A stretch of 64,000 bases of DNA from Bacteroidales bacterium (GCA_963665525.1 OY762280.1:3948084-4012083); one strand, 5' to 3'. Counted from the stretch's first letter, positions 41,261 to 55,417 are shown. Numbers and translations are program-made. Notes: generated from the letters alone by a model not told the origin.

Positions 41261-42148
41261 TTATTTTGCTTCGTTGGTTTTGGCTAGAGATACTAAACCT
41301 CCCATAGCTCCAAGGTTCATTGAATCAAGAGCTGAACTAGGAACAATAACCATTGATCCTTTTTCTTTTAAACCTTCGAATAACATATTCATTCCACGAA
41401 GTTGCAATGCAACAGGATTATCTGCATATTGCTCACTTGCTTTGGCAAATTTTTCTGCGATCTCTGTTTCGGCAGTTCCCAGAATAACTCTTGCTCTGCG
41501 TTCTCTTTCTGCTTGTGCTTCTTTACTCATGGCATCAGCTAGGGCTTGTGGAATAACAATATCTTTTATACCAACAGTTTGACAGGTTATTCCCCAAGGA
41601 TTGGTGTTGTGATCAAGAATTTTTTGCAAATCATCGGCTATTTTATCTCTCTCCTGAAGTAAATCGGCTAACTCGTGTTTCCCAATAATATCGCGCAATC
41701 CGGTTTGTGCAATATAAGATATGGCTTTAACATATTCTTGTACTTCAAGAGCAGCTTTTTCTACATCCCAAACAGTCCAGTAAACTACAGCATCAACATT
41801 TACAGGAACTGTGTCTTTGGTTAAGGTTTGATCGGCCATAAAATCGGTTACCCGAACACGTTGGTCAATGTAGGTGTCAATTTTATCTACAATAGGAATA
41901 ATCATGAAAGGACCTGGACCTTTTAAGCCCTGATATTTACCAAGACGCAATACAACAGCTTTTTCCCATTGATCTGCAATGTGAATGGAGCATGCAATGA
42001 ACAAAGAAAGTAGGATTGAGGGAACCAAAATAGAAATATTAATAATCTCTAAAAAATATAATCCAAACGATACAGTCAATAAAATAATAAGTACTGTAAT
42101 AGAAATTGGATTAAGAAAGCTTTTAGTAATCGTTTGTTTCGTTTTCAT
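41261..42148 (-). CDS. SPFH/Band 7 (stomatin-like, slipin) membrane protein
   Basis: It has N-terminal TM helices, an SPFH core (VRVTDF...VPVNVDAVVYW...IKDIVIP) and an Ala/Glu-rich coiled coil (EAQAERERRARV). Confidence 0.9.
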   Translation of the reverse strand: MKTKQTITKSFLNPISITVLIILLTVSFGLYFLEIINISILVPSILLSLFIACSIHIADQWEKAVVLRLGKYQGLKGPGPFMIIPIVDKIDTYIDQRVRVTDFMADQTLTKDTVPVNVDAVVYWTVWDVEKAALEVQEYVKAISYIAQTGLRDIIGKHELADLLQERDKIADDLQKILDHNTNPWGITCQTVGIKDIVIPQALADAMSKEAQAERERRARVILGTAETEIAEKFAKASEQYADNPVALQLRGMNMLFEGLKEKGSMVIVPSSALDSMNLGAMGGLVSLAKTNEAK

Positions 42149-42195: not shown

Positions 42196-42564
42196 TTATT
42201 TTTGTTTTTGTAGTTCGTTTATAATATCGTTTACTGAGAATCCATAGCTATACGCTATTGTACAAAACTCATGACATATTTCTTTTAGTTTTTCATTTCT
42301 TTCTTTTTCGGAAATTTGAATTTCTATTGTAGAAATAAAAGTGCCTGTGCCTTGTTGGGTTTCAAGAATATTTTGTATTTCAAGCTCTTTATAAGCTTTT
42401 GCGACTGTATTTAAGTTAACTTTTAAATCAACAGCCAAAGCTCGTACTGTAGGTAGTTGCTCTCCAATTTTTAAATTACCACTGGCAATACCAAATTTTA
42501 TCTGATCGATAATTTGTCGGTAAAATGGAGTTCCTGCTTTTGGGTCTAATTTAAATTGAATCAT
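42196..42564 (-). CDS. GntR-family transcriptional regulator, YtrA subfamily
   Basis: 122 aa. It has the GntR wHTH (PFYRQIIDQIKFGIASGNLKIGEQLPTVRALAVDLKVNLNTVAKAY) and a short C-terminal helix pair. Confidence 0.9.
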   Translation of the reverse strand: MIQFKLDPKAGTPFYRQIIDQIKFGIASGNLKIGEQLPTVRALAVDLKVNLNTVAKAYKELEIQNILETQQGTGTFISTIEIQISEKERNEKLKEICHEFCTIAYSYGFSVNDIINELQKQK

Positions 42565-42752: not shown

Positions 42753-43802
42753 TTATGTGGTTTTAATTAATTTATCGAAATACATTGCAAACGAGCGATA
42801 TAAAAAGTGAGTCCATTTACCAAACGGAACTATTATTACAGCCCACTGTACAAGAACTATTAAATGGAATAAATACATCCAAAGGTTGTTTTCGATAATA
42901 TTTAAATCGATAAAAACTCTTACAATAAATGCTGTTAATCCCATTAAGAATAGCCAGATTACAAAAAACCAGTCCGATGGTTGTGAGAACTTGTTTACTT
43001 CTCTGTTTTTTCTAATTCTTCCAATCATAAATATGAATGTAATTGCAAAAATTGCAATACTTTCAATATATCCTAAAAGAATAATAAACATGTTTTCTGT
43101 CCCAAACCAATCTAGAACAACGGTAGTAAAAAGTAAAGCCAGATAACCAAATACAAGTATCATATGCATTAGCCAACGTCTATAACTATCGTCGCAACCC
43201 AAAGTTCGCTTTTGAGTAAACATATGAATAAACAGTTCTTTGGCTGTTAACAGATAGGTTTTAAATTTTACTTTTTTGCCTGGTTTTAATATTACAAACC
43301 ACCACATTCGTGCTAAGTTAGGAATAAGTATAACTGCAAAAACAGCAGCAATAGCAAGCATTTCGAATGTATGTCCAAAGTGCATAATTGCTTCGGTATT
43401 AAAATTTAGTTTAAAACTAAACCAAATAACTGCGATAGCAGTAGCAATAAATGCAAACAGACTAAAAAATAATGATTTGTATAATAGACCCGATAAACCG
43501 GTCCAGTCGTATTTTGCAGTAAGCCATCTTCTTAACGACATCATTAATTCGCCAGGATTAGCTTCTCGCGGACAAGTACTTGCACAATCGCCGCAATAAT
43601 AACATAACCAAGGATCTAATGATGATGTAATTTTCTGATCTAACCCAAGAACACTGGCACGCACCATTTTTCGTGGGAAAGAATTGTCTTTATCAGATAA
43701 GCTGCATACAGCAGTACAATTCCCGCAATTATAACACGCATTAAAATCGTTGTTACCGTATTTGAAGATTTCTTTTGCAAATTTAGGATTTATTCTTGCC
43801 AT
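42753..43802 (-). CDS. QmoC-like subunit: HdrC-type 2x[4Fe-4S] domain fused to a 6-TM cytochrome-b-like (HdrE/NarI-type) membrane domain
   Basis: It has two ferredoxin-type motifs (CYNCGNCTAVC and CYYCGDCASTCP). About six hydrophobic helices follow, carrying candidate haem-ligand His residues (HFGH, MHMIL, FHLIV, WTHF). Confidence 0.8.
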   Translation of the reverse strand: MARINPKFAKEIFKYGNNDFNACYNCGNCTAVCSLSDKDNSFPRKMVRASVLGLDQKITSSLDPWLCYYCGDCASTCPREANPGELMMSLRRWLTAKYDWTGLSGLLYKSLFFSLFAFIATAIAVIWFSFKLNFNTEAIMHFGHTFEMLAIAAVFAVILIPNLARMWWFVILKPGKKVKFKTYLLTAKELFIHMFTQKRTLGCDDSYRRWLMHMILVFGYLALLFTTVVLDWFGTENMFIILLGYIESIAIFAITFIFMIGRIRKNREVNKFSQPSDWFFVIWLFLMGLTAFIVRVFIDLNIIENNLWMYLFHLIVLVQWAVIIVPFGKWTHFLYRSFAMYFDKLIKTT

Positions 43803-43807
43803 ATGAT

Positions 43808-44086
43808 TTACTTTTTCAATTTGTAAAAATAGTATTCATCCATATCATCAATTTCCCCGGTTTCAATACTTCCGTATTTTTGCAAAGTCATTAAATGATA
43901 GGTGACTATATCAAAAGGAATACCTGTTTCTTTAGCAATTTGAGGAATGGTTTTATCTTCCGCTTCGAGAGCTTTCAGGATTTGTTTTTTTATCCTGTTA
44001 AACTCTTTCATTTTTTCTTTTACTTCATCGGAAACTTTCCTCGTTTTCTTAATAATGTCTATTGTTTTTTCCATAATATCTTGCAT
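43808..44086 (-). CDS. Small winged-helix DNA-binding-like protein (Cys-free)
   Basis: 92 aa. The pattern RIKKQILKALEAEDKTIPQIAKETGIPFDIVTYHLMTLQKYGSIE looks like an ArsR/MarR-type wHTH. The gene lies 2 nt and 5 nt from its neighbours inside the operon. Confidence 0.55.
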   Translation of the reverse strand: MQDIMEKTIDIIKKTRKVSDEVKEKMKEFNRIKKQILKALEAEDKTIPQIAKETGIPFDIVTYHLMTLQKYGSIETGEIDDMDEYYFYKLKK

Positions 44087-44088
44087 TA

Positions 44089-46023
44089 TTAATCAATTAA
44101 AGCTTCAATCATACTTTCCATTTCTTTGTCTGTGTATCCAATTAAGTCAATTGCATTTTCAGGACAAACAGGTAAGCACATTCCGCATCCTTTACATAAT
44201 GATTTATTTACAACAGCAACCTCTTTACCATCGGTTGTAGTTTTTGAAATAGCATCGTACGGACAAGCGTTAGAGCAGTTATCACACCACGAACATTTAT
44301 CGTTATGAATAACGGCCATGGTTGGTTCAAGTTCAATTTCGCCTAAGCTAACCAAAGAGTTTGCTTTAGATGCAGCCGATAGTGCCGATTTTACCGATTC
44401 GGTAATATTTAAAGGAGCCTGACAAGCACCTGAAATTAATACTCCATCGATAACGGTTTCTACAGGACGTAGCTTAGGATGTATTTCGTTAAAGAATTTA
44501 TCTCTACCAACAGGAACTTTAAGTAAGTTAACAATGCCTTCGTATTCTCTAGGAACCATTCCGGTTACTAAAACAACTAAATCAGCATTAATTTCTACTT
44601 CTTCGTTGTCGGTTAAAATATCTTTAATTTTAACTATAGTTTCGTTGCCAACATATTGAACTTCCGGAGGAGAATCTTCGAAAGATTGTAAGAAAATATC
44701 GCCAGCTTCGGATGCTTGATGATAAAGTTTCTCTTGCTTTCCGTAAGTTCTTATTCCACGGTTAAAATGGAAGTTATTAATGTTTGGATATTTTTCTTTA
44801 ACAAGAATCGCGGTATGAATTGCTGATGTACAGCAATAACGCGAGCAATATTTATTAGGCCCATCAACCTGACGACTACCAACACAATAGATGTAAGCTA
44901 TATTTTTAACTTCTTGATGATTGTATAATAATTTATCATTATTAAGTTCAATTAATCGCTTAAATTGCTGAAGTGTAATTACATTACTTACCTCATGGTA
45001 TCCAAATTCGCCTTTTTCAGGTTCATAAGGGTTAAATCCGGTACAAAGCTGAATAGCTCCAACAGTAATTTCTGTTTCGGTTTCAGTTTGTTCAAGATCA
45101 ATATCATCGCATATGGCCACACATTCGCCACATTTAGTACAAGCTTTATAATCAATTGCAGGAATTTCAGGAAACTCACTACAGTAGTTTTTAAAAATAG
45201 CTTTACGTTTTGTGATGTTAAAATTGAAATCGTCATCAACCTCAACAGGGCATACTTCAATAGCTTTTTGGAACTTCTCTTTATCAAGTTTGCAATCGGG
45301 TTTAATATAGCGTGGAATAGTTTTTAATTTAAGACTATATTCTCCAACACTACCTTTTTTCTCAGCAATTTCGGTTCCGGTATAAAGCGTAATTTTTGGA
45401 TGAGAAATAATTTCATTGTATAAACGAGATACTACTTCTTGTCCGGTTTCATTAGTTGTAAACAATACGTTCCATTGAGAGGTACGACCACCAACAAAAT
45501 GTTCGCGCTCAATTAAATGAACAGTCGTTCCCATTTCGGCAAGTTCCAAAGCAGCACGCATTCCTGCAATACCAGCACCAACAACAGCAATGGCATTTTG
45601 CGATGGAATTTTAACAGGAGTAAGTTCTTTTGAATATTTTACTCTTTCAATTCCTCCCTGAACTAATTTTATGGCCTTTTCGGTTGCCATTGGGGCATTA
45701 TCGGAATGTGCCCAGGAGCCTTGTTCACGGATATTAACCTGAACGTAATTGTAAGGATTTAACCCGGCGCGTATCGCTACATTTCTAAATGTAAACAAGT
45801 GTAATTTTGGAGAACAAGATGCAACAACTATAGCATCCAAACTTTGTTCTTTGATATCGTTAGCAATTTCTTGTTGTGTGGAATCGGCACAGGCAAACAT
45901 GGTTGTTTTTGCCAGTGTAACTCCTTCAACTTTTGCGGCAGCTTCTTTTACTTTTTCAACATCTACATAGTCGGAAATATTCGAGCCGCACATGCATACA
46001 TATACTCCAATTTTATTTTTCAT
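44089..46023 (-). CDS. HdrA-like FAD/FeS oxidoreductase (QmoB-like but lacking the MvhD domain)
   Basis: It has an N-terminal CMCG motif, the dinucleotide fold VVGAGIAGMRAALELAE, the HdrA signature CVGSRQ...YCSRYCC and a C-terminal 2x4Fe-4S (CSWCDNCSNACP, CKGCGMCLPVCP). It overlaps the upstream gene by 11 nt. Confidence 0.85.
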   Translation of the reverse strand: MKNKIGVYVCMCGSNISDYVDVEKVKEAAAKVEGVTLAKTTMFACADSTQQEIANDIKEQSLDAIVVASCSPKLHLFTFRNVAIRAGLNPYNYVQVNIREQGSWAHSDNAPMATEKAIKLVQGGIERVKYSKELTPVKIPSQNAIAVVGAGIAGMRAALELAEMGTTVHLIEREHFVGGRTSQWNVLFTTNETGQEVVSRLYNEIISHPKITLYTGTEIAEKKGSVGEYSLKLKTIPRYIKPDCKLDKEKFQKAIEVCPVEVDDDFNFNITKRKAIFKNYCSEFPEIPAIDYKACTKCGECVAICDDIDLEQTETETEITVGAIQLCTGFNPYEPEKGEFGYHEVSNVITLQQFKRLIELNNDKLLYNHQEVKNIAYIYCVGSRQVDGPNKYCSRYCCTSAIHTAILVKEKYPNINNFHFNRGIRTYGKQEKLYHQASEAGDIFLQSFEDSPPEVQYVGNETIVKIKDILTDNEEVEINADLVVLVTGMVPREYEGIVNLLKVPVGRDKFFNEIHPKLRPVETVIDGVLISGACQAPLNITESVKSALSAASKANSLVSLGEIELEPTMAVIHNDKCSWCDNCSNACPYDAISKTTTDGKEVAVVNKSLCKGCGMCLPVCPENAIDLIGYTDKEMESMIEALID

Positions 46024-47311
46024 GAGTACCTCCTCTCAAGTAGCCTGCAGTTTCTGAGGAAGCTGCTCCGGCCGATAATATTGAATCTGGGATATCCATT
46101 GGCCCTGATGCTGTTCCTGCTACATAAACCCCATCAATATTGGTTTGTGCAGGGTTGGCAAGTAAATCTCTTTGTTGAACATAATTAAATTGATCTAACT
46201 CAAGATTGTTGTTAAACATTGATTTAACACCATCGTTGGCTAAAATACCAGTCGATAAAACAACCATATCGTGATTCGCTTCTTTAACAGTTCCACTTTC
46301 AATATCCTCGTATCTTAACTTAAGGTCTCCATCTTCAATTTCTTCTATTTTACCAATCTTACCTTTAATAAAGCTTACACCCATATCTTTTGCTTGTTGG
46401 TAAAACTCGTTAAATCCTTTACCAAACGACCGTATGTGTAAGTAATAAATTGTGATATCGGCCATAGGTAATGCTCCCATTAAAAGCTGGGCTTGCTTAA
46501 TTGAATACATACAGCAAACTTGTGAACATATTGGATTTCCAACAGTTTCGTCGCGCGAACCAGCACATAATACATAAGCAATATTGTCGGGCATTTTACC
46601 ATCTTTAGGTCTTAGAACAGTATTGTATGGACGTGTTGGAACTAGCTGACGTTCCATTTGCATGGCTGTAAGTACATTTTTGAATTTTCCAAAACCGTAT
46701 CTTGGAATATTTTCTGCATCGAATAGTTTATATCCGGTTGCAATAATTACCGATTTTGCCTGAATAGCTATGTCTTGCTTTTCTTGAGTAAAATCGATAC
46801 AGTTTGCAGGGCAGGCTTTTTCACATGCTCCGCATAAGCTACAGTTTTCAATATCTATTGCAGCAACCCTGGGATTGGCAATACTAAAAGGTACATAAAC
46901 AGCTTTACGGCCAACTAAATCCCATTGATATTGGTCTTTTACCACTACAGGGCATTTGTCTTCGCAAATCTGGCATCCTGTGCATGATTCTTCATCAACA
47001 TAGCGTGGATACTTGGTTAAGGTAGCGCGAAAATCAAATTCAGACTTTTTATCAATATTACTTACCTGGCTGTTGGTATAAATAGTTATATTTGGATGTC
47101 TTGCTGTTTCGGATACTTTAGGTGTTGTAATACATGCAGAACAATCTAATGTTGGAAAAACCTTACTTAAGTGGATCATTTTACCACCCAGGGATAAGTC
47201 TTTTTCAACAATAATGACTTTATAACCTTGGTTTGCAAGGTTAAGAGCTGCTTCTTCTCCAGAAATTCCTCCACCAATAACAAGAACATCGTATTCTTCT
47301 GATTTTGTCAT
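46013..47311 (-). CDS. HdrA-like FAD/FeS oxidoreductase (QmoA-like)
   Basis: It has VLVIGGGISGEEAAL, FPTLDCSACITTPK and CAGSRDE...CSQVCCMY, matching HdrA signatures, plus two inserted ferredoxin motifs (CTGCQICEDKCP, CSLCGACEKACP). Confidence 0.9.
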   Translation of the reverse strand: MTKSEEYDVLVIGGGISGEEAALNLANQGYKVIIVEKDLSLGGKMIHLSKVFPTLDCSACITTPKVSETARHPNITIYTNSQVSNIDKKSEFDFRATLTKYPRYVDEESCTGCQICEDKCPVVVKDQYQWDLVGRKAVYVPFSIANPRVAAIDIENCSLCGACEKACPANCIDFTQEKQDIAIQAKSVIIATGYKLFDAENIPRYGFGKFKNVLTAMQMERQLVPTRPYNTVLRPKDGKMPDNIAYVLCAGSRDETVGNPICSQVCCMYSIKQAQLLMGALPMADITIYYLHIRSFGKGFNEFYQQAKDMGVSFIKGKIGKIEEIEDGDLKLRYEDIESGTVKEANHDMVVLSTGILANDGVKSMFNNNLELDQFNYVQQRDLLANPAQTNIDGVYVAGTASGPMDIPDSILSAGAASSETAGYLRGGTHEK

Positions 47312-47327
47312 ATTGAGTAATTTTTAG

Positions 47328-47729
47328 TTAATTCTCCGAAGCTTTAGATAATTGCTCATGAAATGTTTTCATGTGCTTTACAAAAGCTTCTGCACAAACG
47401 GAACATATAGCAGCCATTTTTAATCGGGCAGGATCCATATTTTTTTCTTTCATGATAGCATGAGTCGCTTGCACTATTTTTGATGTTTTTTCAGAACAAG
47501 TATCGCTATAAGGACAGTCGGTTCCGTCAGCAGCAATAAAAACACCATCGAATCCTTTTTCGAAAGCATGTAAAATCCATTGTGGTTTTACCGAGCTAGA
47601 ACAAGGAACATTAACAGTATAAACTGTTGCAGGATAATGTTTTTTAAGGAGCCCCGCCATATCGATCGCGGGGTCCGAAATTTTCTCAGTTGAAAAAACC
47701 AGAATCTTTGGATTCTTTAATTTTTCCAT
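47328..47729 (-). CDS. MvhD/FlpD-like iron-sulfur protein (hydrogenase delta-subunit family)
   Basis: 133 aa. The layout ILVFST...VPCSS...FDGVFIAADGTDCPYSDTC...AICSVCAEAF is typical of MvhD-type [2Fe-2S] proteins that partner HdrA. Confidence 0.8.
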   Translation of the reverse strand: MEKLKNPKILVFSTEKISDPAIDMAGLLKKHYPATVYTVNVPCSSSVKPQWILHAFEKGFDGVFIAADGTDCPYSDTCSEKTSKIVQATHAIMKEKNMDPARLKMAAICSVCAEAFVKHMKTFHEQLSKASEN

Positions 47730-47732
47730 CGT

Positions 47733-47984
47733 TTATCCTTTCTTCATGTAAATTTTGAAGTATCCTGACTCTTCTACTGTACCTAAGTAGTCGTGGCCTT
47801 TTTTAGCAGCCCACTTAGGGATATCTTTTTTAGTTCCTTCGTCGGCAGAAAGAACTTCCATAATTTGACCTGAAGTTATTTCGCCAATTGCTTTTTTAGC
47901 AGCTAAAAGTGGTCCTGGACATGCTGTTCCTCTTGCGTCGACTGATTTGTCAACATTTAATGCTTGTAATTCTTCTGTTGTCAT
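47733..47984 (-). CDS. TusA-family sulfurtransferase (second copy)
   Basis: 83 aa with the CPxP active-site motif in VDARGTACPGPLLAAKKAI. Confidence 0.9.
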   Translation of the reverse strand: MTTEELQALNVDKSVDARGTACPGPLLAAKKAIGEITSGQIMEVLSADEGTKKDIPKWAAKKGHDYLGTVEESGYFKIYMKKG

Positions 47985-48004
47985 AACTATATCTCCTTTA
48001 AATT

Positions 48005-48418
48005 TTAAATAAATAAATTAACGTCTGTTTCTTGAATAGACTCAATGTATTCTCCAATTCCACAAATGTCATCAACCACATCAATGAAATCTTCGATTTT
48101 TTCTCCACCGGCAATTTTACCTGCTAAACTGCAGATATGGATTTTTACTTCGGTCATTTCTTTTGCCATTTCGAAAAACTCAATCCACGATGGTGTTGAT
48201 AAGCTTTCGAGAGCAGCTTTAAATTCGTCGGGTGTTTGAACATCTTCGCTCATATTTGATATATCGGCAGCTTTACTTTTTAAGAATGCATGACCTGCAT
48301 TTACCAGAACAAATAAATCTACTTCCATATCGTCGGCAGCAGCACCACTTAAAATAACGCCAACACTTGTTAATTTATCGATGCTTGATGTGCTCAAACC
48401 TATTGTCATTTTTGCCAT
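48005..48418 (-). CDS. DsrE/DsrF-like sulfur-relay family protein
   Basis: 137 aa with an alpha/beta pattern (VGVILSGAAADD...DLFVLVNAGHAF...KIHICSLAG) typical of the DsrE_2/COG2210-type relatives of DsrE. The candidate active Cys is in HICS. Confidence 0.75.
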   Translation of the reverse strand: MAKMTIGLSTSSIDKLTSVGVILSGAAADDMEVDLFVLVNAGHAFLKSKAADISNMSEDVQTPDEFKAALESLSTPSWIEFFEMAKEMTEVKIHICSLAGKIAGGEKIEDFIDVVDDICGIGEYIESIQETDVNLFI

Positions 48419-48443
48419 AATAATTCAATTTTTGTATTAAAGA

Positions 48444-48947
48444 TTAACCTCCACAGCCTCCGCTCGATTCTTCTTTTTTAGGTTCTGCAACAGGTGCAGC
48501 TTCACCCATTCCTTGTTCAACTAATTCAGGATAAGTTGCTTCCCAATCGAACCAGCTAAAATCAAGCAAATAACAATCGGAATATTTTAATAATTCCAGA
48601 GATTGAACAGCTAATGCACCGCTACCCATTTCGTTACCAATTACTAAAGTTTTTATTCTACGATTTGATATTTTACCCGAGAATTCCAGTAATCCGCGAG
48701 GAATATGAATTGATCCCGGAATGTGGCCAAGTATAAAATCATAATCTTCGCGACAATCAACAATTTGAATCTCAGTGTGATTATCAATTAGATTTTTTAA
48801 TTCTTCCATGCCCAATGTTTTGATTTCTGCTTTTGCAGCAGCTATCATATCATCTACATTTTCATAAACTGTATTATCTTTCTGAACACAGCTTGATAAT
48901 AAGATGATTGACAATAAGGTCGGAAAAATGAATTTTATAAATCTCAT
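48444..48947 (-). CDS. Rhodanese-domain lipoprotein without active-site Cys, ending in GGCGG
   Basis: It has the lipobox LLSSC and a rhodanese core (IVDCREDYDFILGHIPGSIHIPRG). The active-site loop reads LVIGNEMGSGALA, with no Cys. A Pro/Glu/Ala linker follows, then the C-terminal SSGGCGG and a stop. Confidence 0.8.
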   Translation of the reverse strand: MRFIKFIFPTLLSIILLSSCVQKDNTVYENVDDMIAAAKAEIKTLGMEELKNLIDNHTEIQIVDCREDYDFILGHIPGSIHIPRGLLEFSGKISNRRIKTLVIGNEMGSGALAVQSLELLKYSDCYLLDFSWFDWEATYPELVEQGMGEAAPVAEPKKEESSGGCGG

Positions 48948-48958
48948 AATTACTTATT

Positions 48959-49765
48959 TTATAATTTCCATTCGTTGTATGCTCCGTCGTAAACTTTTAC
49001 GTTAGGATACTCAAGAACTGAAGTTAATGCAAGATATACTATCCCGGCTCTTACGCTGGTTGCACAGTAAAGAATAATTTCTTTGTCTTTGGTAATACCT
49101 GCACCATTAAATAATGCTTGTAAATCTTCTTTTGATTTAAGTTTACCGCCATCGGCTAAAACATTTTTATACTCTAAGTGCTTAGCACCTTCGATGTATC
49201 CTTCTGCCCATTCTGTATCGTCTCTAACATCAACAAGAATAGCCGACTTTAATTTAGATTTTACATAAGCTTTATCGGCAAAGATTTTAGCATTTACTTT
49301 AGGAGTAAATGTTACAGCAGCTTTTTTTGTTGCAGCATTTGTAACTGGACCTCTTGCGGTTCTCCATGCTTGCATATGACCATCCATAACTTTCACATCG
49401 TTGAATCCTAAATATTTTAGAATCCAGTATAAACGGCCTGCACCTTTATTTGAACCTGTATCGTAAATGATGATTTTTTTAGCTGGATCAATTCCTTTTT
49501 CTCCTAAGATAGTAGCTAGTTCAGCTGGAGATTTAAGAATTCCTTTAGGATCAGTTGTGCTTGCTAAGTCGTTAATGTTCACATTAACCGCATTTCTGAT
49601 ATGCACTTTTGCATAATCGGCTGGAGTTCTAGTAGATACAATAACAGCATCTTTGCTATTCACTAATTTCTTAGCTTCGGCAGCAGAAATTAAATCCTGA
49701 GCAAAAGAAAGATTTGCGAATATAGCTACTAATAAAAGACTAAATAATATGTTTTTTAATTTCAT
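48959..49765 (-). CDS. Secreted two-domain rhodanese (thiosulfate sulfurtransferase type)
   Basis: It has a signal peptide (LSFA|QD). The N-domain loop IYDTGSNKGAGR is inactive (Asp in place of Cys). The C-domain loop LYCATSVRAG is active. Confidence 0.9.
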   Translation of the reverse strand: MKLKNILFSLLLVAIFANLSFAQDLISAAEAKKLVNSKDAVIVSTRTPADYAKVHIRNAVNVNINDLASTTDPKGILKSPAELATILGEKGIDPAKKIIIYDTGSNKGAGRLYWILKYLGFNDVKVMDGHMQAWRTARGPVTNAATKKAAVTFTPKVNAKIFADKAYVKSKLKSAILVDVRDDTEWAEGYIEGAKHLEYKNVLADGGKLKSKEDLQALFNGAGITKDKEIILYCATSVRAGIVYLALTSVLEYPNVKVYDGAYNEWKL

Positions 49766-49776
49766 AATTTCGTTTA

Positions 49777-50823
49777 TTAAAATTTAACCTGAACTTGCAA
49801 TACAACCTGATCGTTAGGAATTTCTAAAGCTTGTTCTGCTTTGTATCTGTAATTTAATTGAACACGTGTCCAATCGTTTAAGAAATAGTTTAATCCAAAT
49901 GTCATGATTGTTTCAGAGTTGTCGTCGATATCTACGTCAGAATCAAAGCATTCAAATTTGAATACTGGTTGTAAATTCCATCTTGTAGTATACATTGCCT
50001 GTGCAAAATAACCGCTACGAGTTACACCACCAGTATGATATTCGATTGGTGTACCATCGCAACCACCACCAGTTGTGTAATCGCCAGTATCATCGGCCCA
50101 AAGATATTCTGCCTGAAATAAGAAATTTCCGGTTTTTATTTGTACTTCGCCACCTAAACGAGTTTTCTCGTTATCTTCTTCGGCACCTGTTTTACCATAG
50201 GCAAAACTACCGCCTACCTGAAGAAAATCAACAGGAGCAAATGTTAATCTTCCTTTTATACTTTTAGCTTTGTTTTCATCTTCGAAACCTTTTTCATAAT
50301 CATTCATTAAAGCTAAATAGTAGTTGATTTTAGAGTCGAGAAGACTACCAAAAACCATAGCTCCCATATCGCGTTGCGGACCTGCTAGTTCGTCAACAGC
50401 TTTTGAACGATAGATAGTATGAAGAGACTGACAAGGTGTGTTTTGCTCTAAACTTAATGGCGATTTAAACTGACCAAAGCTTATTTTGGCAAAATCGTAT
50501 CGTGAATAAGTCACAAATGCATCTAGTAACCATGGCGATCCTGATTTGAATCGAGAGAAATCAACCATGAAGAAATAACTTACATCGTAAGGAATATTTC
50601 CAACTGCAGCTATTCTTGCACGGTTAAAGGTAAAGCTGTTAGCATCTTTACCATCGGTAGTTTGATAATATTCCCACTGTGGCTGAATGTAACCTTTAAT
50701 GCTTACTCCTTCGTCGGAAGAAGCTTCCATACATCCTTGTGCAGAAACAAGCTGTGTAGATGTTAATACCACAAGAATTGAGAGGCTAAATATTGATAAT
50801 ATCTTTTTAATCATTTTTTTCAT
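49777..50823 (-). CDS. Outer-membrane porin, phosphate-selective porin O/P-like family
   Basis: It has a signal peptide (LVSA|QG), an N-terminal FTFNRARIAAVGNI block like the porin O/P family, a beta-strand periodicity and the C-terminal ...VLQVQVKF. Confidence 0.75.
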   Translation of the reverse strand: MKKMIKKILSIFSLSILVVLTSTQLVSAQGCMEASSDEGVSIKGYIQPQWEYYQTTDGKDANSFTFNRARIAAVGNIPYDVSYFFMVDFSRFKSGSPWLLDAFVTYSRYDFAKISFGQFKSPLSLEQNTPCQSLHTIYRSKAVDELAGPQRDMGAMVFGSLLDSKINYYLALMNDYEKGFEDENKAKSIKGRLTFAPVDFLQVGGSFAYGKTGAEEDNEKTRLGGEVQIKTGNFLFQAEYLWADDTGDYTTGGGCDGTPIEYHTGGVTRSGYFAQAMYTTRWNLQPVFKFECFDSDVDIDDNSETIMTFGLNYFLNDWTRVQLNYRYKAEQALEIPNDQVVLQVQVKF

Positions 50824-50832
50824 ATTTTTAAT

Positions 50833-50866
50833 TAAAAAATAAGCTAAGTAGCTTTTGCTACCCAGC
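50833..50866 (-). terminator. Intra-operon terminator/attenuator-like hairpin (minus strand)
   Basis: The minus-strand RNA reads gcugggtagc-aaaa-gcuacuuagc, a 10-bp stem with two G-U pairs, followed by uuauuuuuu. On the plus strand the same positions would be A-C mismatches. Confidence 0.45.
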
Positions 50867-50877
50867 TTAAATATTTT

Positions 50878-51843
50878 TTATTCTAATGGTAAGTCAGTAA
50901 TTGCTGTAGCATCCCACTTGTGTGAAGTAAGATTATCATAAATCATACTATTAACACCATTTTTTAAACTGTGTGGAGTATAACCTAATACATATAAATA
51001 AGCTGTTACCATTGAAGAAGTTTGTCCTGTCCAGCAATATGTTACCACATCTTTTGATGGATCAAGATACATATATTCTCCACCAGCTAATGTTAAAGGC
51101 TTAATTCGGTATGCACCAGAAATGTGTCCGTAAGTTGTAACATCAGCCGCATCCCAGAAATTATTTACATAGTAACTTCCTGGACTAGCTAATACGTCAG
51201 ACCCAGCAACACCTTGGAAACCAGCTGTTAATAATGCAGTAACTCTTGCGGCAAGAATTTCAGCACCTGTTCCTGTAGTTGTAATATCAGGATCGTCGAA
51301 TTGAGTAGTTTGAGTACTTACAGCACCAGGAGCAGCAATCCAGTTAGGGCTATCAATTGTATTACATGAACCACTCCATGAGTCAAGGCTGGTATGCCAT
51401 CCACTCATTCCCCATTTTAATACTTTGGCATCAGTATAACCGCTTAAACGTAAAGCAACGGTTCCATGTCCTGCTCCTTGTCCGCTATAACAAACAACAA
51501 TAATTGGTTTTCCGGCAGCATTACCTGCTTCGGTAACAATATTACCTAAAGTTGAATTTACTGCTCCAGGAATATGACTTGTGTTATATGCGTCAGAAGA
51601 TCTGATATCAATTATATAATAAGAGCTTAGGTTATCTTTTATAGCATCAGCAGTAGTGATCCAGTCAGTTAGTATATTATCCAAATCCAAATCGTTAGCT
51701 ACTAAGTACTCTTTTAGAATCTGAAATTCAGTGTCGGTTTGACGGTCTGGAGTTGCATCGTCATCACTGTCGTCTTTACAAGATGTTAAAACAAATGCAG
51801 GAATAATTAAAATTAATAATGCGTACTTTAAAAACTTTTTCAT
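50878..51843 (-). CDS. Lipoprotein with two rhodanese-like domains and an acidic post-Cys tract
   Basis: The lipobox VLTSC is followed by KDDSDDDATPD. Two rhodanese modules carry the loops VVCYSGQGAGHG and TYCWTGQTSS. I chose the ATG at 51843, because the longer ORF overlaps the upstream gene. Confidence 0.8.
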   Translation of the reverse strand: MKKFLKYALLILIIPAFVLTSCKDDSDDDATPDRQTDTEFQILKEYLVANDLDLDNILTDWITTADAIKDNLSSYYIIDIRSSDAYNTSHIPGAVNSTLGNIVTEAGNAAGKPIIVVCYSGQGAGHGTVALRLSGYTDAKVLKWGMSGWHTSLDSWSGSCNTIDSPNWIAAPGAVSTQTTQFDDPDITTTGTGAEILAARVTALLTAGFQGVAGSDVLASPGSYYVNNFWDAADVTTYGHISGAYRIKPLTLAGGEYMYLDPSKDVVTYCWTGQTSSMVTAYLYVLGYTPHSLKNGVNSMIYDNLTSHKWDATAITDLPLE

Positions 51844-51878
51844 AGTATTATAAATTTTGGTTAGTATTTTCTTATTTA

Positions 51879-52355
51879 TTATCCTCCACAACCACCTGAC
51901 TCAGGTTGCTTAGTAATAGCAGGGGCTCCGCCTGAAAATTTCATCCAACCACCTTTAAGGTTAGATATATTTTCGAATCCCAATTTTTGAAGTGATTTTG
52001 CAGCAAGAGCACCACGGCCACCTACTTTGCAATACACAATAATTTTATCAGTTTTTAGAGGGGTGTACATGAATTGCTCTTCCCAGAAATATTCATCAAG
52101 AATAAGGAATTCTAATTCACCACGAGGAATAGAGAATGATCCCGGAATATTTCCTGCTTCGTATTCGGAAGGTTGTCTTACATCTATTAAAAGGAATTCT
52201 TCTCCATTATCAATCATCGATTTTAAAGTATCGACAGATATTTCATTTATTTCGGTTGCAACAACACTAGCTAATTCTTTACCATCTTCATATATGGCAG
52301 TACAAGAAGAAAACAAGAAGATGAGCAGTGCTGCGATTGATATATTAAATTTCAT
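51879..52355 (-). CDS. Rhodanese lipoprotein with intact active-site Cys, ending in GGCGG
   Basis: It has the lipobox LFSSC, the core LIDVRQPSEYEAGNIPGSFSIPRG and the active loop IVYCKVGGRGALA. The C-terminus reads ...APAITKQPESGGCGG followed by TAA. Confidence 0.85.
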   Translation of the reverse strand: MKFNISIAALLIFLFSSCTAIYEDGKELASVVATEINEISVDTLKSMIDNGEEFLLIDVRQPSEYEAGNIPGSFSIPRGELEFLILDEYFWEEQFMYTPLKTDKIIVYCKVGGRGALAAKSLQKLGFENISNLKGGWMKFSGGAPAITKQPESGGCGG

Positions 52356-52381
52356 AATTTTGTTTTTAATAGTTTCAATAA

Positions 52382-53596
52382 TTAAAAAGCACTGAATTTT
52401 CCTGTGCGTTCATTCCACTTAACAAATACATACCATATTAGTATTACTACAAGAACTAGAATAAAAGCTCCAGCATAGCCTAAATAGTCAGGCAAATAAT
52501 TTTTGAACTTCATTGTATGAGGGAGTGCATCAACGATTGCAGGAACAATATATTTTTTAGAAATAGGGGATACAAGTAAGAATCCTAATGCAGCCATCCA
52601 TAATTTAACCTGCCCTTCGCCTACACGCCAAAGTGTTCCAACGGCACATCCTCCGGCAACAGTCATTCCTAATCCAAAAATAAATCCTCCTAAAAGACCA
52701 CGTAACCAGAAATGTCCAAAAACCCAGGTCATTTCACGAGCACGAATAGTAGCATCGCCTGCACCAATACCAAAATATTTAATGGCAGTGAAACCTATTA
52801 ATGTAATAACTAAACCGGCCATTACTCCAACAGAACCATCGCTTTCGCCTGTCATAAAAGGATCGCGGAATGCTTTAACGATACAAAAGCGTGATCGTTG
52901 GCAAATGAGTCCCATTAATAATCCTGAAATTATAAACCAGGCTAATACGCCATTGGTTCCGGCAACTCTATATGCAAGAACAAAAGTTCCGATAGAAACG
53001 ATCCATCCTAACCAGATTTGCCATTTTCCTGTTTTTTCTGATGCAGCAAGGAAAGTAAAACTTTTACCTGTGCTAAAAGAAGGGAACTTTTCCATTTCCC
53101 AAAGCAAGTATTTAAGAGCAATTATAGTACCAGCAAAAAGTCCTATAGTAAAAATAATTGCTCCACCTGATAATGCTGGGACACCCGAGAAAAATGAACC
53201 AATTGTACAACCTAATCCCAGAGTTGCTCCAATAGCCATTAATGCACCTCCAATAAATCCTTTTATTAATTCTCCTTTAGGAGGTATTCGTAAGGCAAAT
53301 TCTTTTGAGAAGAGAGCTCCGGCAAATGATCCTAAAACCAGTATCAGGCAAAGCATACCATAAAGACTGGTACTTGTAGGTGCAGCATTTTCAAAAGCAG
53401 AAATACCCAGGAGCTTAAAAATATTCTCACCCCAGTTATTAATACCACCACTAGCACCCCAAGGACTTTTTACGGTAAATAGTAAAATGTTTAGTAGTCC
53501 CAGAGTAACACCACCAACCCATACTGGCCAGTGTTTGGCGAAAAAAATATTAAATAATTCGCGAAGTATTCCTGGCTCTTTTTGTTGATCAGCCAT
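52382..53596 (-). CDS. YeeE/YedE-family sulfur-compound (thiosulfate-type) transporter
   Basis: 404 aa and polytopic. It has the repeated Cys-containing motifs LGLGCTIGSFFSG, GLICQRSRFC and VAGGCAVGTLWRVGEG that are characteristic of YeeE/YedE. Confidence 0.9.
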   Translation of the reverse strand: MADQQKEPGILRELFNIFFAKHWPVWVGGVTLGLLNILLFTVKSPWGASGGINNWGENIFKLLGISAFENAAPTSTSLYGMLCLILVLGSFAGALFSKEFALRIPPKGELIKGFIGGALMAIGATLGLGCTIGSFFSGVPALSGGAIIFTIGLFAGTIIALKYLLWEMEKFPSFSTGKSFTFLAASEKTGKWQIWLGWIVSIGTFVLAYRVAGTNGVLAWFIISGLLMGLICQRSRFCIVKAFRDPFMTGESDGSVGVMAGLVITLIGFTAIKYFGIGAGDATIRAREMTWVFGHFWLRGLLGGFIFGLGMTVAGGCAVGTLWRVGEGQVKLWMAALGFLLVSPISKKYIVPAIVDALPHTMKFKNYLPDYLGYAGAFILVLVVILIWYVFVKWNERTGKFSAF

Positions 53597-53605
53597 TTTT
53601 ACCTC

Positions 53606-53836
53606 CTACTTTTTTTGTATTAGAAACCTGAAAACACCATTTTCAACTTCACCTTCTTCAAGTAAAGCGTTTCCTGTTTTTTCACACCATTTTGGTAGGT
53701 CTGATTTTGTTCCAGGATCGGTTCCTAACATTTCAAGCACATCTCCAGAACCTAATCCTTTAATTGCTTTTGCCAGTTTCATCATTGGCATAGGACATGA
53801 AAGCCCTTTTACGTCTAATGTTTCTTTAATTTCCAT
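53606..53836 (-). CDS. TusA-family sulfurtransferase (first copy, paired with YeeE)
   Basis: 76 aa with the motif LDVKGLSCPMPMMKLAKAI (CPxP). It lies 9 nt upstream of the YeeE gene. Confidence 0.9.
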   Translation of the reverse strand: MEIKETLDVKGLSCPMPMMKLAKAIKGLGSGDVLEMLGTDPGTKSDLPKWCEKTGNALLEEGEVENGVFRFLIQKK

Positions 53837-53954
53837 ATCAATAAAATTTAGTGATTATTTCGTTGGAGTAAAGGTTGTTAATTAATTAACACAAGTAAAG
53901 AAAACCTTTGTGATGTTCATCCAGTATAAATCATGAGATTGGGTAGCAAGAAAA

Positions 53955-53968
53955 CTGATTTAGATCAA
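53955..53968. promoter_or_regulatory. Candidate Crp/FNR-type operator (cTGAT-N4-ATCAA)
   Basis: CTGATTTAGATCAA matches 9 of 10 positions of TTGAT-N4-ATCAA. It lies in the divergent region between the sulfur operon (ATG at 53836) and the Crp/Fnr gene (ATG at 54026). Confidence 0.4.
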
Positions 53969-54025
53969 CTTTTTTGCTGATTTATTGTTATATTTATATC
54001 ATTAAAGCCTATTAATGTTGTACTT

Positions 54026-54721
54026 ATGGAAAAGATATCTGCTTTAAATAGTTGTACAGTAAGCAATGCAAAATGTATTTGTTTTGATTTATTGACGCCA
54101 GAACAAAGAGAATTGATTGAAAAAAATTCGATTGATGTTCGATATAAGAAAGGTGAAGTAATTTGTAAACATGGTACTTTTGCTCCACATGTTATTCTAC
54201 TTAAAGAGGGCTTGGCAAAAATTTATTTAGAGGGTTTAAATGATTCCTTAATCTTAAAAATAATTACTTCGGGTAATTTAATTGGGTTAACTTCTGTTAT
54301 GGAAGATAATAATGTGTTTCATTATTCAGCATCGGCATATGTTGATTCTTCTGCCAGCTTAATAGATATCAATATCTTTAGAAAAATTCTTAAAGAAAAT
54401 GCCGAATTTGCAAATTCGGTAATAAATATTTTATGTGAAAATTCCTTACAAACTTTCGGAAGATTTTTCTGCTTAACACATAAACAACTATATGGTAGAA
54501 TGGCAGATATTATCTTATGTTTATCTGAAAGAATCTTTAAAGAAAAAAGTTTTGTTTTAAATCTTACAAGAAAAGAGCTGGCTGAATTAACAGGGATGTC
54601 AACGGAAAGCGTTATACGAATGCTTAAGAAATTTAAAGATGACGGAATAATAGAACTGCAAGGAAAGGAAGTCGTTATTTCAAATTATGATTTATTGCGT
54701 AAGATTAGCGAATATGGATAA
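54026..54721 (+). CDS. Crp/Fnr-family transcriptional regulator
   Basis: It has a cNMP-binding-like beta-barrel and a C-terminal HTH (TRKELAELTGMSTESVIRMLKKF). The N-terminus carries the Cys residues CTVSNAKCIC. Confidence 0.9.
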   Translation: MEKISALNSCTVSNAKCICFDLLTPEQRELIEKNSIDVRYKKGEVICKHGTFAPHVILLKEGLAKIYLEGLNDSLILKIITSGNLIGLTSVMEDNNVFHYSASAYVDSSASLIDINIFRKILKENAEFANSVINILCENSLQTFGRFFCLTHKQLYGRMADIILCLSERIFKEKSFVLNLTRKELAELTGMSTESVIRMLKKFKDDGIIELQGKEVVISNYDLLRKISEYG

Positions 54722-54724
54722 TAT

Positions 54725-55417
54725 CTATCCATTTTTACTTATCTCTTTTAGTAGTTCCAGGTTTAAGATCTTTATTTTTTTACCCTTTAGCTGAATAATT
54801 TTTTCATCATTAAATTCTGATAATATTCGGGCAACACTTTCAATGGCCATTCCGGAAAGCTCGGCTAAATCTTTTCGATTAACATATGAAAATACATCAA
54901 TTGATTTAAACTCTTCTCTGTTTAAGTATAATAATACATTAGCTAATTTTCCATTTAATTGTTTTAAACCAAGGTTTAAACATTTGGTTAACATAATATT
55001 GTAGTTTTTACAATACCAACTTGCTAATTCGCGAGAAAAATCGCAGCTCATAGAGATTAAGTCTTTAATGGCATTTTGATTAATTGCACATACTTTTGTT
55101 TCAGTAATTGCAGCTGCTGAGAAATAATAGGAATCGTCGCCGTATAAAGAGGTTAATCCAATAAAATCATGCGGTTTTAGTAGTTTGATGATAATATTTT
55201 TACCGGGACCTTCGATGTATACTTTTACTAATCCATTAAGAACATATAAAATATCAGATACACGTGTGCCTTCTTTAATTATTGTTTCTCCTTTGTTATA
55301 TGTAACATGGGTTTTGACTAGATTATTAAACTCATCAATTATTTCAATATCCTGGATAAAACATTCCGATTTTCTGTTGCAATCTGTACAGTTAGTTTTT
55401 ATTAAATATCTGTCCAT
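54725..55417 (-). CDS. Crp/Fnr-family transcriptional regulator (paralog, convergent)
   Basis: It has the same architecture, with the HTH NRKDLAELSGMAIESVARILSEF and the N-terminal Cys cluster CTDCNRKSEC. Confidence 0.9.
   Translation of the reverse strand: MDRYLIKTNCTDCNRKSECFIQDIEIIDEFNNLVKTHVTYNKGETIIKEGTRVSDILYVLNGLVKVYIEGPGKNIIIKLLKPHDFIGLTSLYGDDSYYFSAAAITETKVCAINQNAIKDLISMSCDFSRELASWYCKNYNIMLTKCLNLGLKQLNGKLANVLLYLNREEFKSIDVFSYVNRKDLAELSGMAIESVARILSEFNDEKIIQLKGKKIKILNLELLKEISKNG

Follow-up and report, generated by a model that had tools for sequence, protein, structure and literature searches.

What does a run of 14 closely spaced genes, which brings together rhodaneses, sulfur carriers that resemble TusA and DsrE, and HdrA-type redox proteins, do in a Bacteroidales bacterium? 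The genes lie at positions 42753-53836 of a 64,000-nt stretch of DNA (GCA_963665525.1 OY762280.1:3948084-4012083; G000:C1:3948084-4012083 in our coordinates), which we analysed as a whole and call the window; the host genome is closed, with 4,597,882 bp, a GC content of ~32% and a completeness of 99.9%. As an earlier note made from the sequence alone had described, all 14 open reading frames (ORFs) are on the minus strand and are separated by gaps of 2–54 nt, and an 11-nt overlap (46013-46023), in which the end of HdrA432 runs into the start of HdrA644, was judged real. From their sequences, the most likely function of the cluster is to gain energy by the reduction (or oxidation) of sulfur bound to proteins, a role that has so far not been described in Bacteroidales. 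As a tentative reading, we propose that the core of the cluster encodes a Qmo-like, menaquinone-coupled HdrA complex that would reduce the sulfane sulfur bound to TusA and DsrE to sulfide.

The family assignments of the earlier note were supported by Pfam and NCBIfam scans, by PDB structure searches and, for the DsrE-like protein, by an AlphaFold model and Foldseek. Its view of the cluster as one conserved 14-gene pathway had to be given up after all window proteins were compared with 80 relative loci by tblastn. The genes for DsrE, TusA, MvhD, HdrA432, HdrA644, a winged helix-turn-helix (wHTH) protein and a QmoC-like protein recur in the same order in 70–80 of the 80 loci (DsrE in 58), and we refer to them as the core. 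The peripheral genes, encoding TusA1, YeeE, four rhodanese proteins and a porin, are limited to ~12–17 close relatives. Because the core genes recur in order across most of the loci and the peripheral genes in these relatives, the 14 ORFs are, on this comparison, not chance. A single ancestral 14-gene operon was rejected, since the synteny separates a conserved core from an add-on that is restricted to a clade and sits behind the core promoter, two modules that differ in their histories. In the genome_contigs collection, homologs of HdrA644 were found at 325 loci, nearly all in Bacteroidales metagenome-assembled genomes (MAGs), with a top identity of 86%. Cultured relatives with the core include Labilibaculum, Ancylomarina and Draconibacterium, from which QmoC-like proteins were among the matches.

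Four core proteins, HdrA432, HdrA644, MvhD and the QmoC-like protein, match in effect the plan of QmoABC, with QmoB predicted to be split into HdrA644 and MvhD. HdrA432 (46013..47311), an HdrA-family flavoprotein similar to QmoA, matches the NCBIfam HdrA2 model with 468 bits over 140-564 and the PDB HdrA structures 9sfi and 5odc with E values of 1e-104 to 1e-109 over PDB residues 146-562; it does not have the N-terminal domain of HdrA. The flavin adenine dinucleotide (FAD) motif and the two ferredoxin motifs of HdrA432 are conserved, and a CxxC motif (C57/C60) stands at the position where the methanogen HdrA has a "DDC..X" motif. HdrA644 (44089..46023), which is present in 80 of the 80 loci, is a full-length HdrA with FAD and 4Fe-4S features, similar to QmoB minus its MvhD fusion; it matches the HdrA2 model with 566.6 bits over 1-640 and the solved methanogen HdrA (PDB 5odc) with an E value of 6.3e-123. 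The MvhD-like [2Fe-2S] subunit (47328..47729) scores 104.5 bits on Pfam FlpD, has five invariant cysteines and corresponds in alignment to residues 644-772 of the methanogen HdrA2, the MvhD part at its C-terminus. The Apr-linked QmoB encoded elsewhere in the same genome is the fused HdrA and MvhD form.

The QmoC-like membrane subunit (42753..43802) combines an HdrC-type domain with two [4Fe-4S] sites and a b-type cytochrome domain of ~6 helices. HdrC models match it, and its score of 159.5 bits on the NCBIfam QmoC model (trusted cutoff 300) makes it QmoC-like, not QmoC by that model. Its eight ferredoxin cysteines are invariant, and the protein has about six hydrophobic segments. Four membrane histidines (His193, His213, His313 and His332), which it has in common with the canonical QmoC of the genome, are consistent with two b-hemes. 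The earlier note had described this part of the cluster as a set of HdrA-, MvhD- and QmoC-like proteins; the families were right, but the set is better termed a QmoABC-like complex whose QmoB is split in two.

The remaining core proteins include two candidate sulfur carriers. The DsrE-like sulfur transferase (48005..48418) is encoded by the first core gene and matches Pfam DrsE_2 with 34 bits (cutoff 25); Cys96 is its one invariant cysteine among 57 homologs. Its AlphaFold model (predicted local distance difference test score, 87) was closest in Foldseek to the DsrE/DsrF-like protein SSO1126 (2qs7; template modelling score, 0.89), followed by Swol DsrE, YchN and DsrEFH (2hy5). The model confirmed the DsrE fold, which together with the conserved active cysteine places the protein in the DsrE/DsrF superfamily. 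TusA2 (47733..47984), a TusA-like carrier with a CPGP motif (Pfam TusA, 79.9 bits), is present in 72 of the 80 loci. Both it and the peripheral TusA1 score below the NCBIfam TusA equivalog cutoff, and the cysteine of the CPxP motif of TusA is invariant among the relatives. The conserved single cysteines and the DsrE fold agree with the role of persulfide carriers that had been suggested for TusA and DsrE.

TusA and DsrE appear to be integral to the core, not incidental, because they are retained in most of the 80 Bacteroidales loci. The same retention counts against a role unrelated to sulfur, in which the HdrA/MvhD/QmoC-like proteins would form a bifurcating menaquinol:ferredoxin (or NAD) oxidoreductase and TusA and DsrE would serve regulation or cofactor maturation, and so does the add-on module, which clearly concerns sulfur capture. 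Such a role is quite improbable, although bifurcating HdrA-MvhD modules serve many partners (PMC5296606, PMC6085437) and the operon has its own regulator, the wHTH protein, and a neighbour of the CRP/FNR type. The wHTH protein (43808..44086) is small, ArsR-like and free of cysteine, matches HTH_5 (21.8 bits; cutoff 22) and HTH_Cmi2_C in Pfam, and is encoded in 76 of the 80 loci; a persulfide-sensing ArsR regulator of the SqrR/BigR type was considered for it and rejected, since the protein has no cysteine.

In the tentatively preferred reading of the core as a persulfide-reducing complex, HdrA432 would take the part of QmoA, HdrA644 and MvhD together that of a split QmoB, and the QmoC-like protein that of a heme-b membrane anchor which exchanges electrons with menaquinone. 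The redox partner would be the TusA and DsrE of the operon itself, not AprAB: electrons from menaquinol would pass to the persulfide sulfur on these carriers, and sulfide would be released. Reduced ferredoxin might contribute as well, by flavin-based electron confurcation on the flavins of HdrA. The complex would then be a reductase of a new design for an anaerobic member of the Bacteroidales, acting on thiosulfate, polysulfide or sulfur, and would serve either as a sink for electrons or as the reductive branch of disproportionation. We infer from sequence the assembly of these proteins into a complex, the electron partner and the direction of the reaction.

Several observations weigh against this reading. 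The cluster does not encode an HdrB/CCG catalytic subunit or another known sulfur-reactive catalytic site; Pfam searches of the cluster found no CCG/HdrB gene, no hydrogenase and no HdrBC. As the site of persulfide reduction, the cysteines of TusA and DsrE, a cysteine pair of HdrA or an Fe-S cluster are guesses; this HdrB-type gap is the main one in every reading. Persulfide reduction by menaquinol alone is thermodynamically not possible, and confurcation is an assumption. The sHdr systems with the same set of TusA, DsrE and rhodanese proteins oxidise sulfane sulfur (PMC11094781), and the co-occurrence of the core with a Sat-less AprBA-QmoABC in ~11 of 16 AprA-positive genomes fits an oxidative or disproportionating role equally. 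The only CCG protein of the host genome (C1:423895; 266 aa) belongs to an HdrD-like pair (C1:422395-425655; L088), whose other member is a 4Fe-4S ferredoxin protein of 296 aa.

The sulfur and redox enzymes encoded elsewhere in the genome bear on the direction of the reaction. The earlier note had found no known terminal sulfur enzyme, which is true of the window, where aprBA is also absent, but the genome has a canonical aprBA together with qmoABC (fused QmoB) at C1:494-501 kb (L002, L003), with aprBA at C1:499549-501384. The idea of an "orphan" Qmo in an Apr-free genome was accordingly rejected. Searches of the host genome found neither a Sat-type ATP sulfurylase (TIGR00339, PF01747) nor DsrAB, nor any siroheme enzyme that reduces sulfite or nitrite; two genes of the 3'-phosphoadenosine 5'-phosphosulfate (PAPS) reductase family are present. 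The genome encodes three molybdopterin enzymes, namely a formate dehydrogenase, a cytoplasmic enzyme of the dimethyl sulfoxide (DMSO) reductase family and a large Fdh/Nuo-like protein, and none of the three is of the Psr/Phs/Ttr type exported by twin-arginine translocation (Tat). The DMSO-reductase-family enzyme (681 aa; C1:41506-43551; L090) has no Tat signal and weak similarity to PhsA and is a candidate cytoplasmic thiosulfate reductase.

The Qmo-like complex is left as a candidate sulfane-sulfur reductase because Sat, DsrAB, siroheme sulfite reductase and Tat-exported Psr/Phs/Ttr enzymes were not found. The host is probably an anaerobe or aerotolerant anaerobe, since no heme-copper oxidase was found in its genome and only a single bd oxidase is present. 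We favour reduction because the host is probably anaerobic and because neither Sat nor a sulfite reductase, a periplasmic Psr/Phs or parts of a Sox-type oxidation system were found; sulfur reduction as an electron sink would suit such a host.

The AprBA-QmoABC system of the host was followed across 301 Bacteroidales genomes, in which core orthologs were called at an identity of at least 55% and AprA by scores above its cutoff. Core orthologs were found in ~36–40 of the 301 (~12%). AprA was found in 16 (a baseline of 5%), ~11 of which carry the core, and Sat was found in 5, including one AprA-positive genome, so that 15 of the 16 AprA-positive genomes are Sat-less. AprBA-QmoABC is thus characteristically Sat-less in Bacteroidales and is enriched alongside the core, which is an association, not a test, since kin are not independent.

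This co-occurrence is one of the points that suit an oxidative, sHdr-like function, in which the core would oxidise the sulfane sulfur bound to TusA and DsrE (derived from thiosulfate or sulfide), electrons would reach menaquinone via the QmoC-like subunit, and AprBA-QmoABC would then oxidise the sulfite. Sets of TusA, DsrE and rhodanese proteins go with the sulfur-oxidising sHdr system (PMC11094781), SoxT1A, which is YeeE-like, brings in sulfur that is to be oxidised (PMC11582611), and Qmo complexes operate oxidatively in some sulfur oxidisers (PMC10504309). We nevertheless consider this function unlikely: neither an HdrB/CCG subunit nor a siroheme enzyme is at hand for the six-electron oxidation to sulfite, there is no Sat to convert adenosine 5'-phosphosulfate (APS) to sulfate and ATP, this genome has no heme-copper oxidase, and the hosts are mainly anaerobic Bacteroidales.

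The Sat-less AprBA-QmoABC would also have a place in the disproportionation of thiosulfate or elemental sulfur, in which the core would reduce sulfane sulfur to sulfide with the menaquinol produced by AprBA-QmoABC during the oxidation of sulfite to APS, with APS handled by a Sat-independent route. Clusters of YedE, TusA and DsrE (YTD) are candidate markers of disproportionation (PMC12998232, PMC13490349), and a contig of a Desulfobulbia MAG (L071) also has core genes. Disproportionation is nonetheless highly unlikely, as most of the genomes concerned have no Sat or any known ATP-yielding step that consumes APS, and the process is unknown in Bacteroidota. The Desulfobulbia contig carries the core genes for DsrE, TusA, MvhD and both HdrA proteins and is possibly misbinned; Desulfobulbia is a class that contains sulfur disproportionators.

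How the sulfur would reach the core is suggested by the add-on module, which begins with TusA1 (53606..53836), a TusA-like carrier with a CPMP motif (Pfam TusA, 86.7 bits; NCBIfam TusA PRK00299, 59 bits, cutoff 78). The next gene encodes a YeeE/YedE-family inner-membrane sulfur transporter of the thiosulfate type (52382..53596; 404 aa; Pfam Sulf_transp, 178.7 bits), which has about 10 hydrophobic segments and matches the NCBIfam YedE/TsuA models below their cutoffs. It is followed by Rhod158 (51879..52355), a rhodanese lipoprotein (Pfam Rhodanese; lipobox) with a C-terminal SGGCGG, in which the lipobox Cys18, the active Cys109 and the tail Cys156 are conserved. Rhod2x (50878..51843), a two-domain rhodanese lipoprotein (Pfam Rhodanese twice) with CKDD after the lipobox cysteine, has mostly conserved both active cysteines in its relatives. 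If Rhod2x started at the alternative TTG (51891), it would overlap Rhod158 by 13 nt; this overlap is a probable artefact, since a normal lipoprotein signal results from the ATG at 51843, the likely start.

The last three genes of the add-on encode (i) an outer-membrane porin of the OprO/P family (49777..50823; Pfam Porin_O_P, 54.3 bits, and Porin_4) with a signal peptide; (ii) Rhod268 (48959..49765; Pfam Rhodanese, 134.8 bits), a secreted two-domain rhodanese with a signal peptide, whose domain 1 is free of cysteine and whose active cysteine, the conserved Cys234, is in domain 2 only; and (iii) Rhod167 (48444..48947), a rhodanese lipoprotein (Pfam Rhodanese; lipobox) that has no active-site cysteine and ends in SGGCGG, with a tail Cys165 that is invariant in the relatives. 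Two GGCGG-tailed rhodanese lipoproteins are found in every locus that carries the peripheral module. The possibility that the tails are a one-off was rejected, since 114 of the 120 top homologs of Rhod158 share a cysteine-terminated, glycine-rich (GGCGG) tail. The span of compartments that had been described for the cluster holds for these assignments: the lipoproteins, the porin and the secreted rhodanese are predicted beyond the inner membrane, YeeE and the QmoC-like protein in the inner membrane, and TusA, DsrE, HdrA and MvhD in the cytoplasm.

In the proposed reductive pathway, the rhodanese lipoproteins of the cell surface or periplasm, two of them with GGCGG cysteine arms, the secreted rhodanese and the OprO/P porin would take up extracellular sulfane sulfur from thiosulfate, polysulfide or elemental sulfur (S0). 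YeeE would bring the sulfur into the cell, where TusA would deliver it to DsrE and the Qmo-like complex. The OprOP-type porin of a sulfur-disproportionating bacterium parallels the porin of the cluster (PMC13490349).

The same import route could instead supply biosynthesis, with sulfane sulfur derived from thiosulfate or polysulfide being reduced to sulfide or persulfide for cysteine and cofactor synthesis and the Qmo-like complex giving the reducing power. As the genome has no siroheme sulfite reductase, its sulfate assimilation cannot reach sulfide, a gap that such a supply would fill, and the YeeE/TusA pair resembles, with NCBIfam matches below cutoff, the TsuA/TsuB thiosulfate-uptake pair of E. 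coli. A four-subunit, membrane-bound, quinone-linked bifurcating complex would, however, far exceed a biosynthetic need, and the presence of the core in so few Bacteroidales genomes, enriched with AprBA, points to energy metabolism, so that we judge a purely biosynthetic supply to be quite unlikely.

The junction between the two modules suggests how they may be expressed. The 189-bp region (53837..54025) between TusA1 and a divergent regulator gene, which we take as the operon promoter/regulatory region, has a homologous counterpart before dsrE in loci that carry only the core: over 130 bp, it is 80% identical in blastn to the dsrE-upstream regions of two such loci (L015 and L017), and it shares a 16-bp palindrome-like element with them. 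Because of this homology, we conclude from the sequence comparison that the add-on module is inserted between the conserved core promoter region and dsrE, leaving a 25-nt gap between Rhod167 and dsrE. All 14 genes are probably transcribed from the core promoter in the host genome, since the add-on sits between the promoter region and dsrE.

RNA-library contigs from marine-sediment metatranscriptomes (Logan), mostly of relatives at 90–95% identity, cover 27 of 30 bins of the cluster; a contig is not a single transcript, and RNA libraries may hold DNA. Junctions bridged by these contigs are DsrE/Rhod167, HdrA644/HdrA432, HdrA432/MvhD and porin/Rhod2x; at the last of these, the contig of a relative spans a terminator-like hairpin (50840..50869, minus strand), which a consensus scan places between Rhod2x and the porin. 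The position of the peripheral module directly behind the core promoter, the short gap before dsrE and the contigs that bridge the module junction make the single transcription unit of the earlier note likely. Promoter and terminator consensus scans gave matches at chance level overall, and a sigma-70-like site (53881-53854, minus strand) from these scans is not used as evidence.

The divergent gene (54026..54721, plus strand) encodes a CRP/FNR-family regulator (Pfam cNMP_binding and HTH_Crp_2) with an N-terminal cysteine cluster. A CRP-family gene with N-terminal cysteine motifs occupies the equivalent divergent position in 56 of the 80 relative loci, and these clusters may serve Fe-S or redox sensing. 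A second CRP/FNR-family regulator (window 54725-55417, minus strand), divergent to the first, has an FNR-like N-terminal C-x2-C-x5-C motif. On the other side of the cluster, just downstream of the QmoC-like gene, are genes for a GntR-family regulator (42196-42564, minus strand) and an SPFH/Band-7 protein (41261-42148, minus strand), which are kept only in the nearest relatives (L005 and L008) and are outside the core. The antisense plus-strand ORFs at 42886-43146, 43276-43599, 44965-45327 and 52782-53363 have neither conservation nor domains and are probably not genes.

The GC content of the cluster (0.35–0.37 in window 44001-52000) is above that of the genome (~0.31–0.32), and the core is absent from genomes of the same genus; for these two reasons, the cluster may have been acquired horizontally. 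DNA runs of the host organism exist, and marine-sediment metatranscriptomes contain relatives of the cluster.

What makes the locus of interest is that it would place dissimilatory sulfur chemistry in Bacteroidales that are widespread in sediments and would give a Qmo-type complex a persulfide carrier as its partner. It is conceivable, if doubtful, that marine and sediment Bacteroidales have an unrecognised dissimilatory sulfur metabolism, in which a Qmo-type HdrA membrane complex would act on TusA/DsrE sulfane sulfur, reducing or oxidising it, would be fed in some lineages by GGCGG-armed rhodaneses and, with a Sat-less AprBA-QmoABC, may support thiosulfate/S0 respiration or disproportionation, neither of which the phylum is known for. 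If so, Bacteroidota, an abundant group in anoxic marine sediments that is usually deemed fermentative, would join the sulfur cycle directly via a new Qmo/Hdr module, and thousands of genes labelled only "4Fe-4S dicluster domain protein" would be reassigned. Qmo-type complexes would then work with partners beyond AprAB, i.e., protein-bound persulfides, and HdrA-based complexes would be able to handle sulfane sulfur even where no HdrB catalytic subunit is present.

In known systems, HdrA/Qmo complexes act as reductases of disulfides or of APS. The QmoABC complex of sulfate reducers and Chlorobi, which is derived from HdrA, linked to menaquinone and partnered with AprAB, has the same parts as the core: two HdrA-family flavoproteins, an MvhD-type subunit and a QmoC-like fusion of HdrC and cytochrome b. 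This likeness suggests a role in linking menaquinone to a soluble acceptor of the sulfur-compound kind. HdrA432 corresponds to QmoA as an HdrA-like FAD flavoprotein without the N-terminal domain; the C-terminal MvhD fusion that defines QmoB is instead divided here between separate genes, HdrA644 covering HdrA2 1-640 and MvhD covering 644-772; and the QmoC-like subunit has the architecture and the histidines of QmoC but falls short of the trusted cutoff. In place of a linkage to aprBA, the operon encodes TusA and DsrE, and the aprBA of the genome goes with the separate canonical qmoABC. Type II Qmo, which is nearer to HdrA than canonical QmoAB is, occurs in organisms with or without Apr/Dsr, and its role is unknown (PMC10504309).

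Structural parallels also exist with two other HdrA-based systems. The sHdr-LbpA system of Hyphomicrobium and Aquifex has an HdrA-type flavoprotein, invariably comes with sulfur transferases of the TusA, DsrE and rhodanese types (PMC11094781) and in some hosts goes with a YeeE-type importer; here, the HdrA-type flavoproteins are accompanied by two TusA proteins, a DsrE-type protein and four rhodaneses. By contrast, the cluster has no HdrB1/HdrB2/HdrC1/C2 (CCG) subunits, so that the sHdr core arrangement sHdrC1-B1-A-Hyp-(C2-B2 or B3) is absent, and no GcvH/LbpA-type ORF is among the cluster ORFs, a genome-wide search for it not having been made. What it encodes instead are MvhD and a QmoC-like anchor in the membrane, and its hosts are anaerobic Bacteroidales as opposed to aerobic sulfur oxidisers. 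With the electron-bifurcating MvhADG-HdrABC complex of methanogens, the cluster shares a full HdrA, whose nearest solved structure is the methanogen HdrA (5odc), and a separate MvhD, but it does not have the MvhAG hydrogenase, HdrBC or the CoM-S-S-CoB substrate, and the electron input would be the QmoC-like menaquinone module.

The sulfur-capture genes have their own counterparts. The YTD clusters of sulfur-disproportionating Desulfobacterota and Nitrospirota (yedE, tusA, dsrE and chp1-3), which, like an OprOP-type porin, have been associated with the disproportionation of sulfur by Desulfobacterota (PMC13490349, PMC12998232), share the YedE-TusA-DsrE trio with our cluster, in which these genes are joined, in Bacteroidota, to an HdrA/Qmo-like complex and extracellular rhodanese lipoproteins. 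As in TsuA/TsuB (YeeE/YeeD) of E. coli, a YeeE-family transporter gene adjoins a TusA-like carrier gene, but the matches to the TsuA models (92.9–94.9 bits; cutoffs 400–645) and to TsuB/YeeD (27 bits; cutoff 147.5) are below those for either protein, and the pair is embedded among periplasmic and surface rhodaneses and a redox complex. The YeeE-like SoxT1A likewise imports sulfur, in that case for oxidation (PMC11582611). The C-terminal cysteine in GGCGG, which follows a flexible linker and is a likely carrier of sulfur substrates, resembles the swinging arm of SoxY, whose C-terminal GGCGG carries sulfur substrates (PMC6067878); the arm is fused here to rhodanese-domain lipoproteins, and neither a SoxY fold nor a SoxZ partner was found. 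A description of a QmoABC-like operon with TusA and DsrE in Bacteroidota was not found in the literature, and we regard the cluster as a variant of the known Qmo/Hdr sulfur-relay systems, not as a categorically new system.

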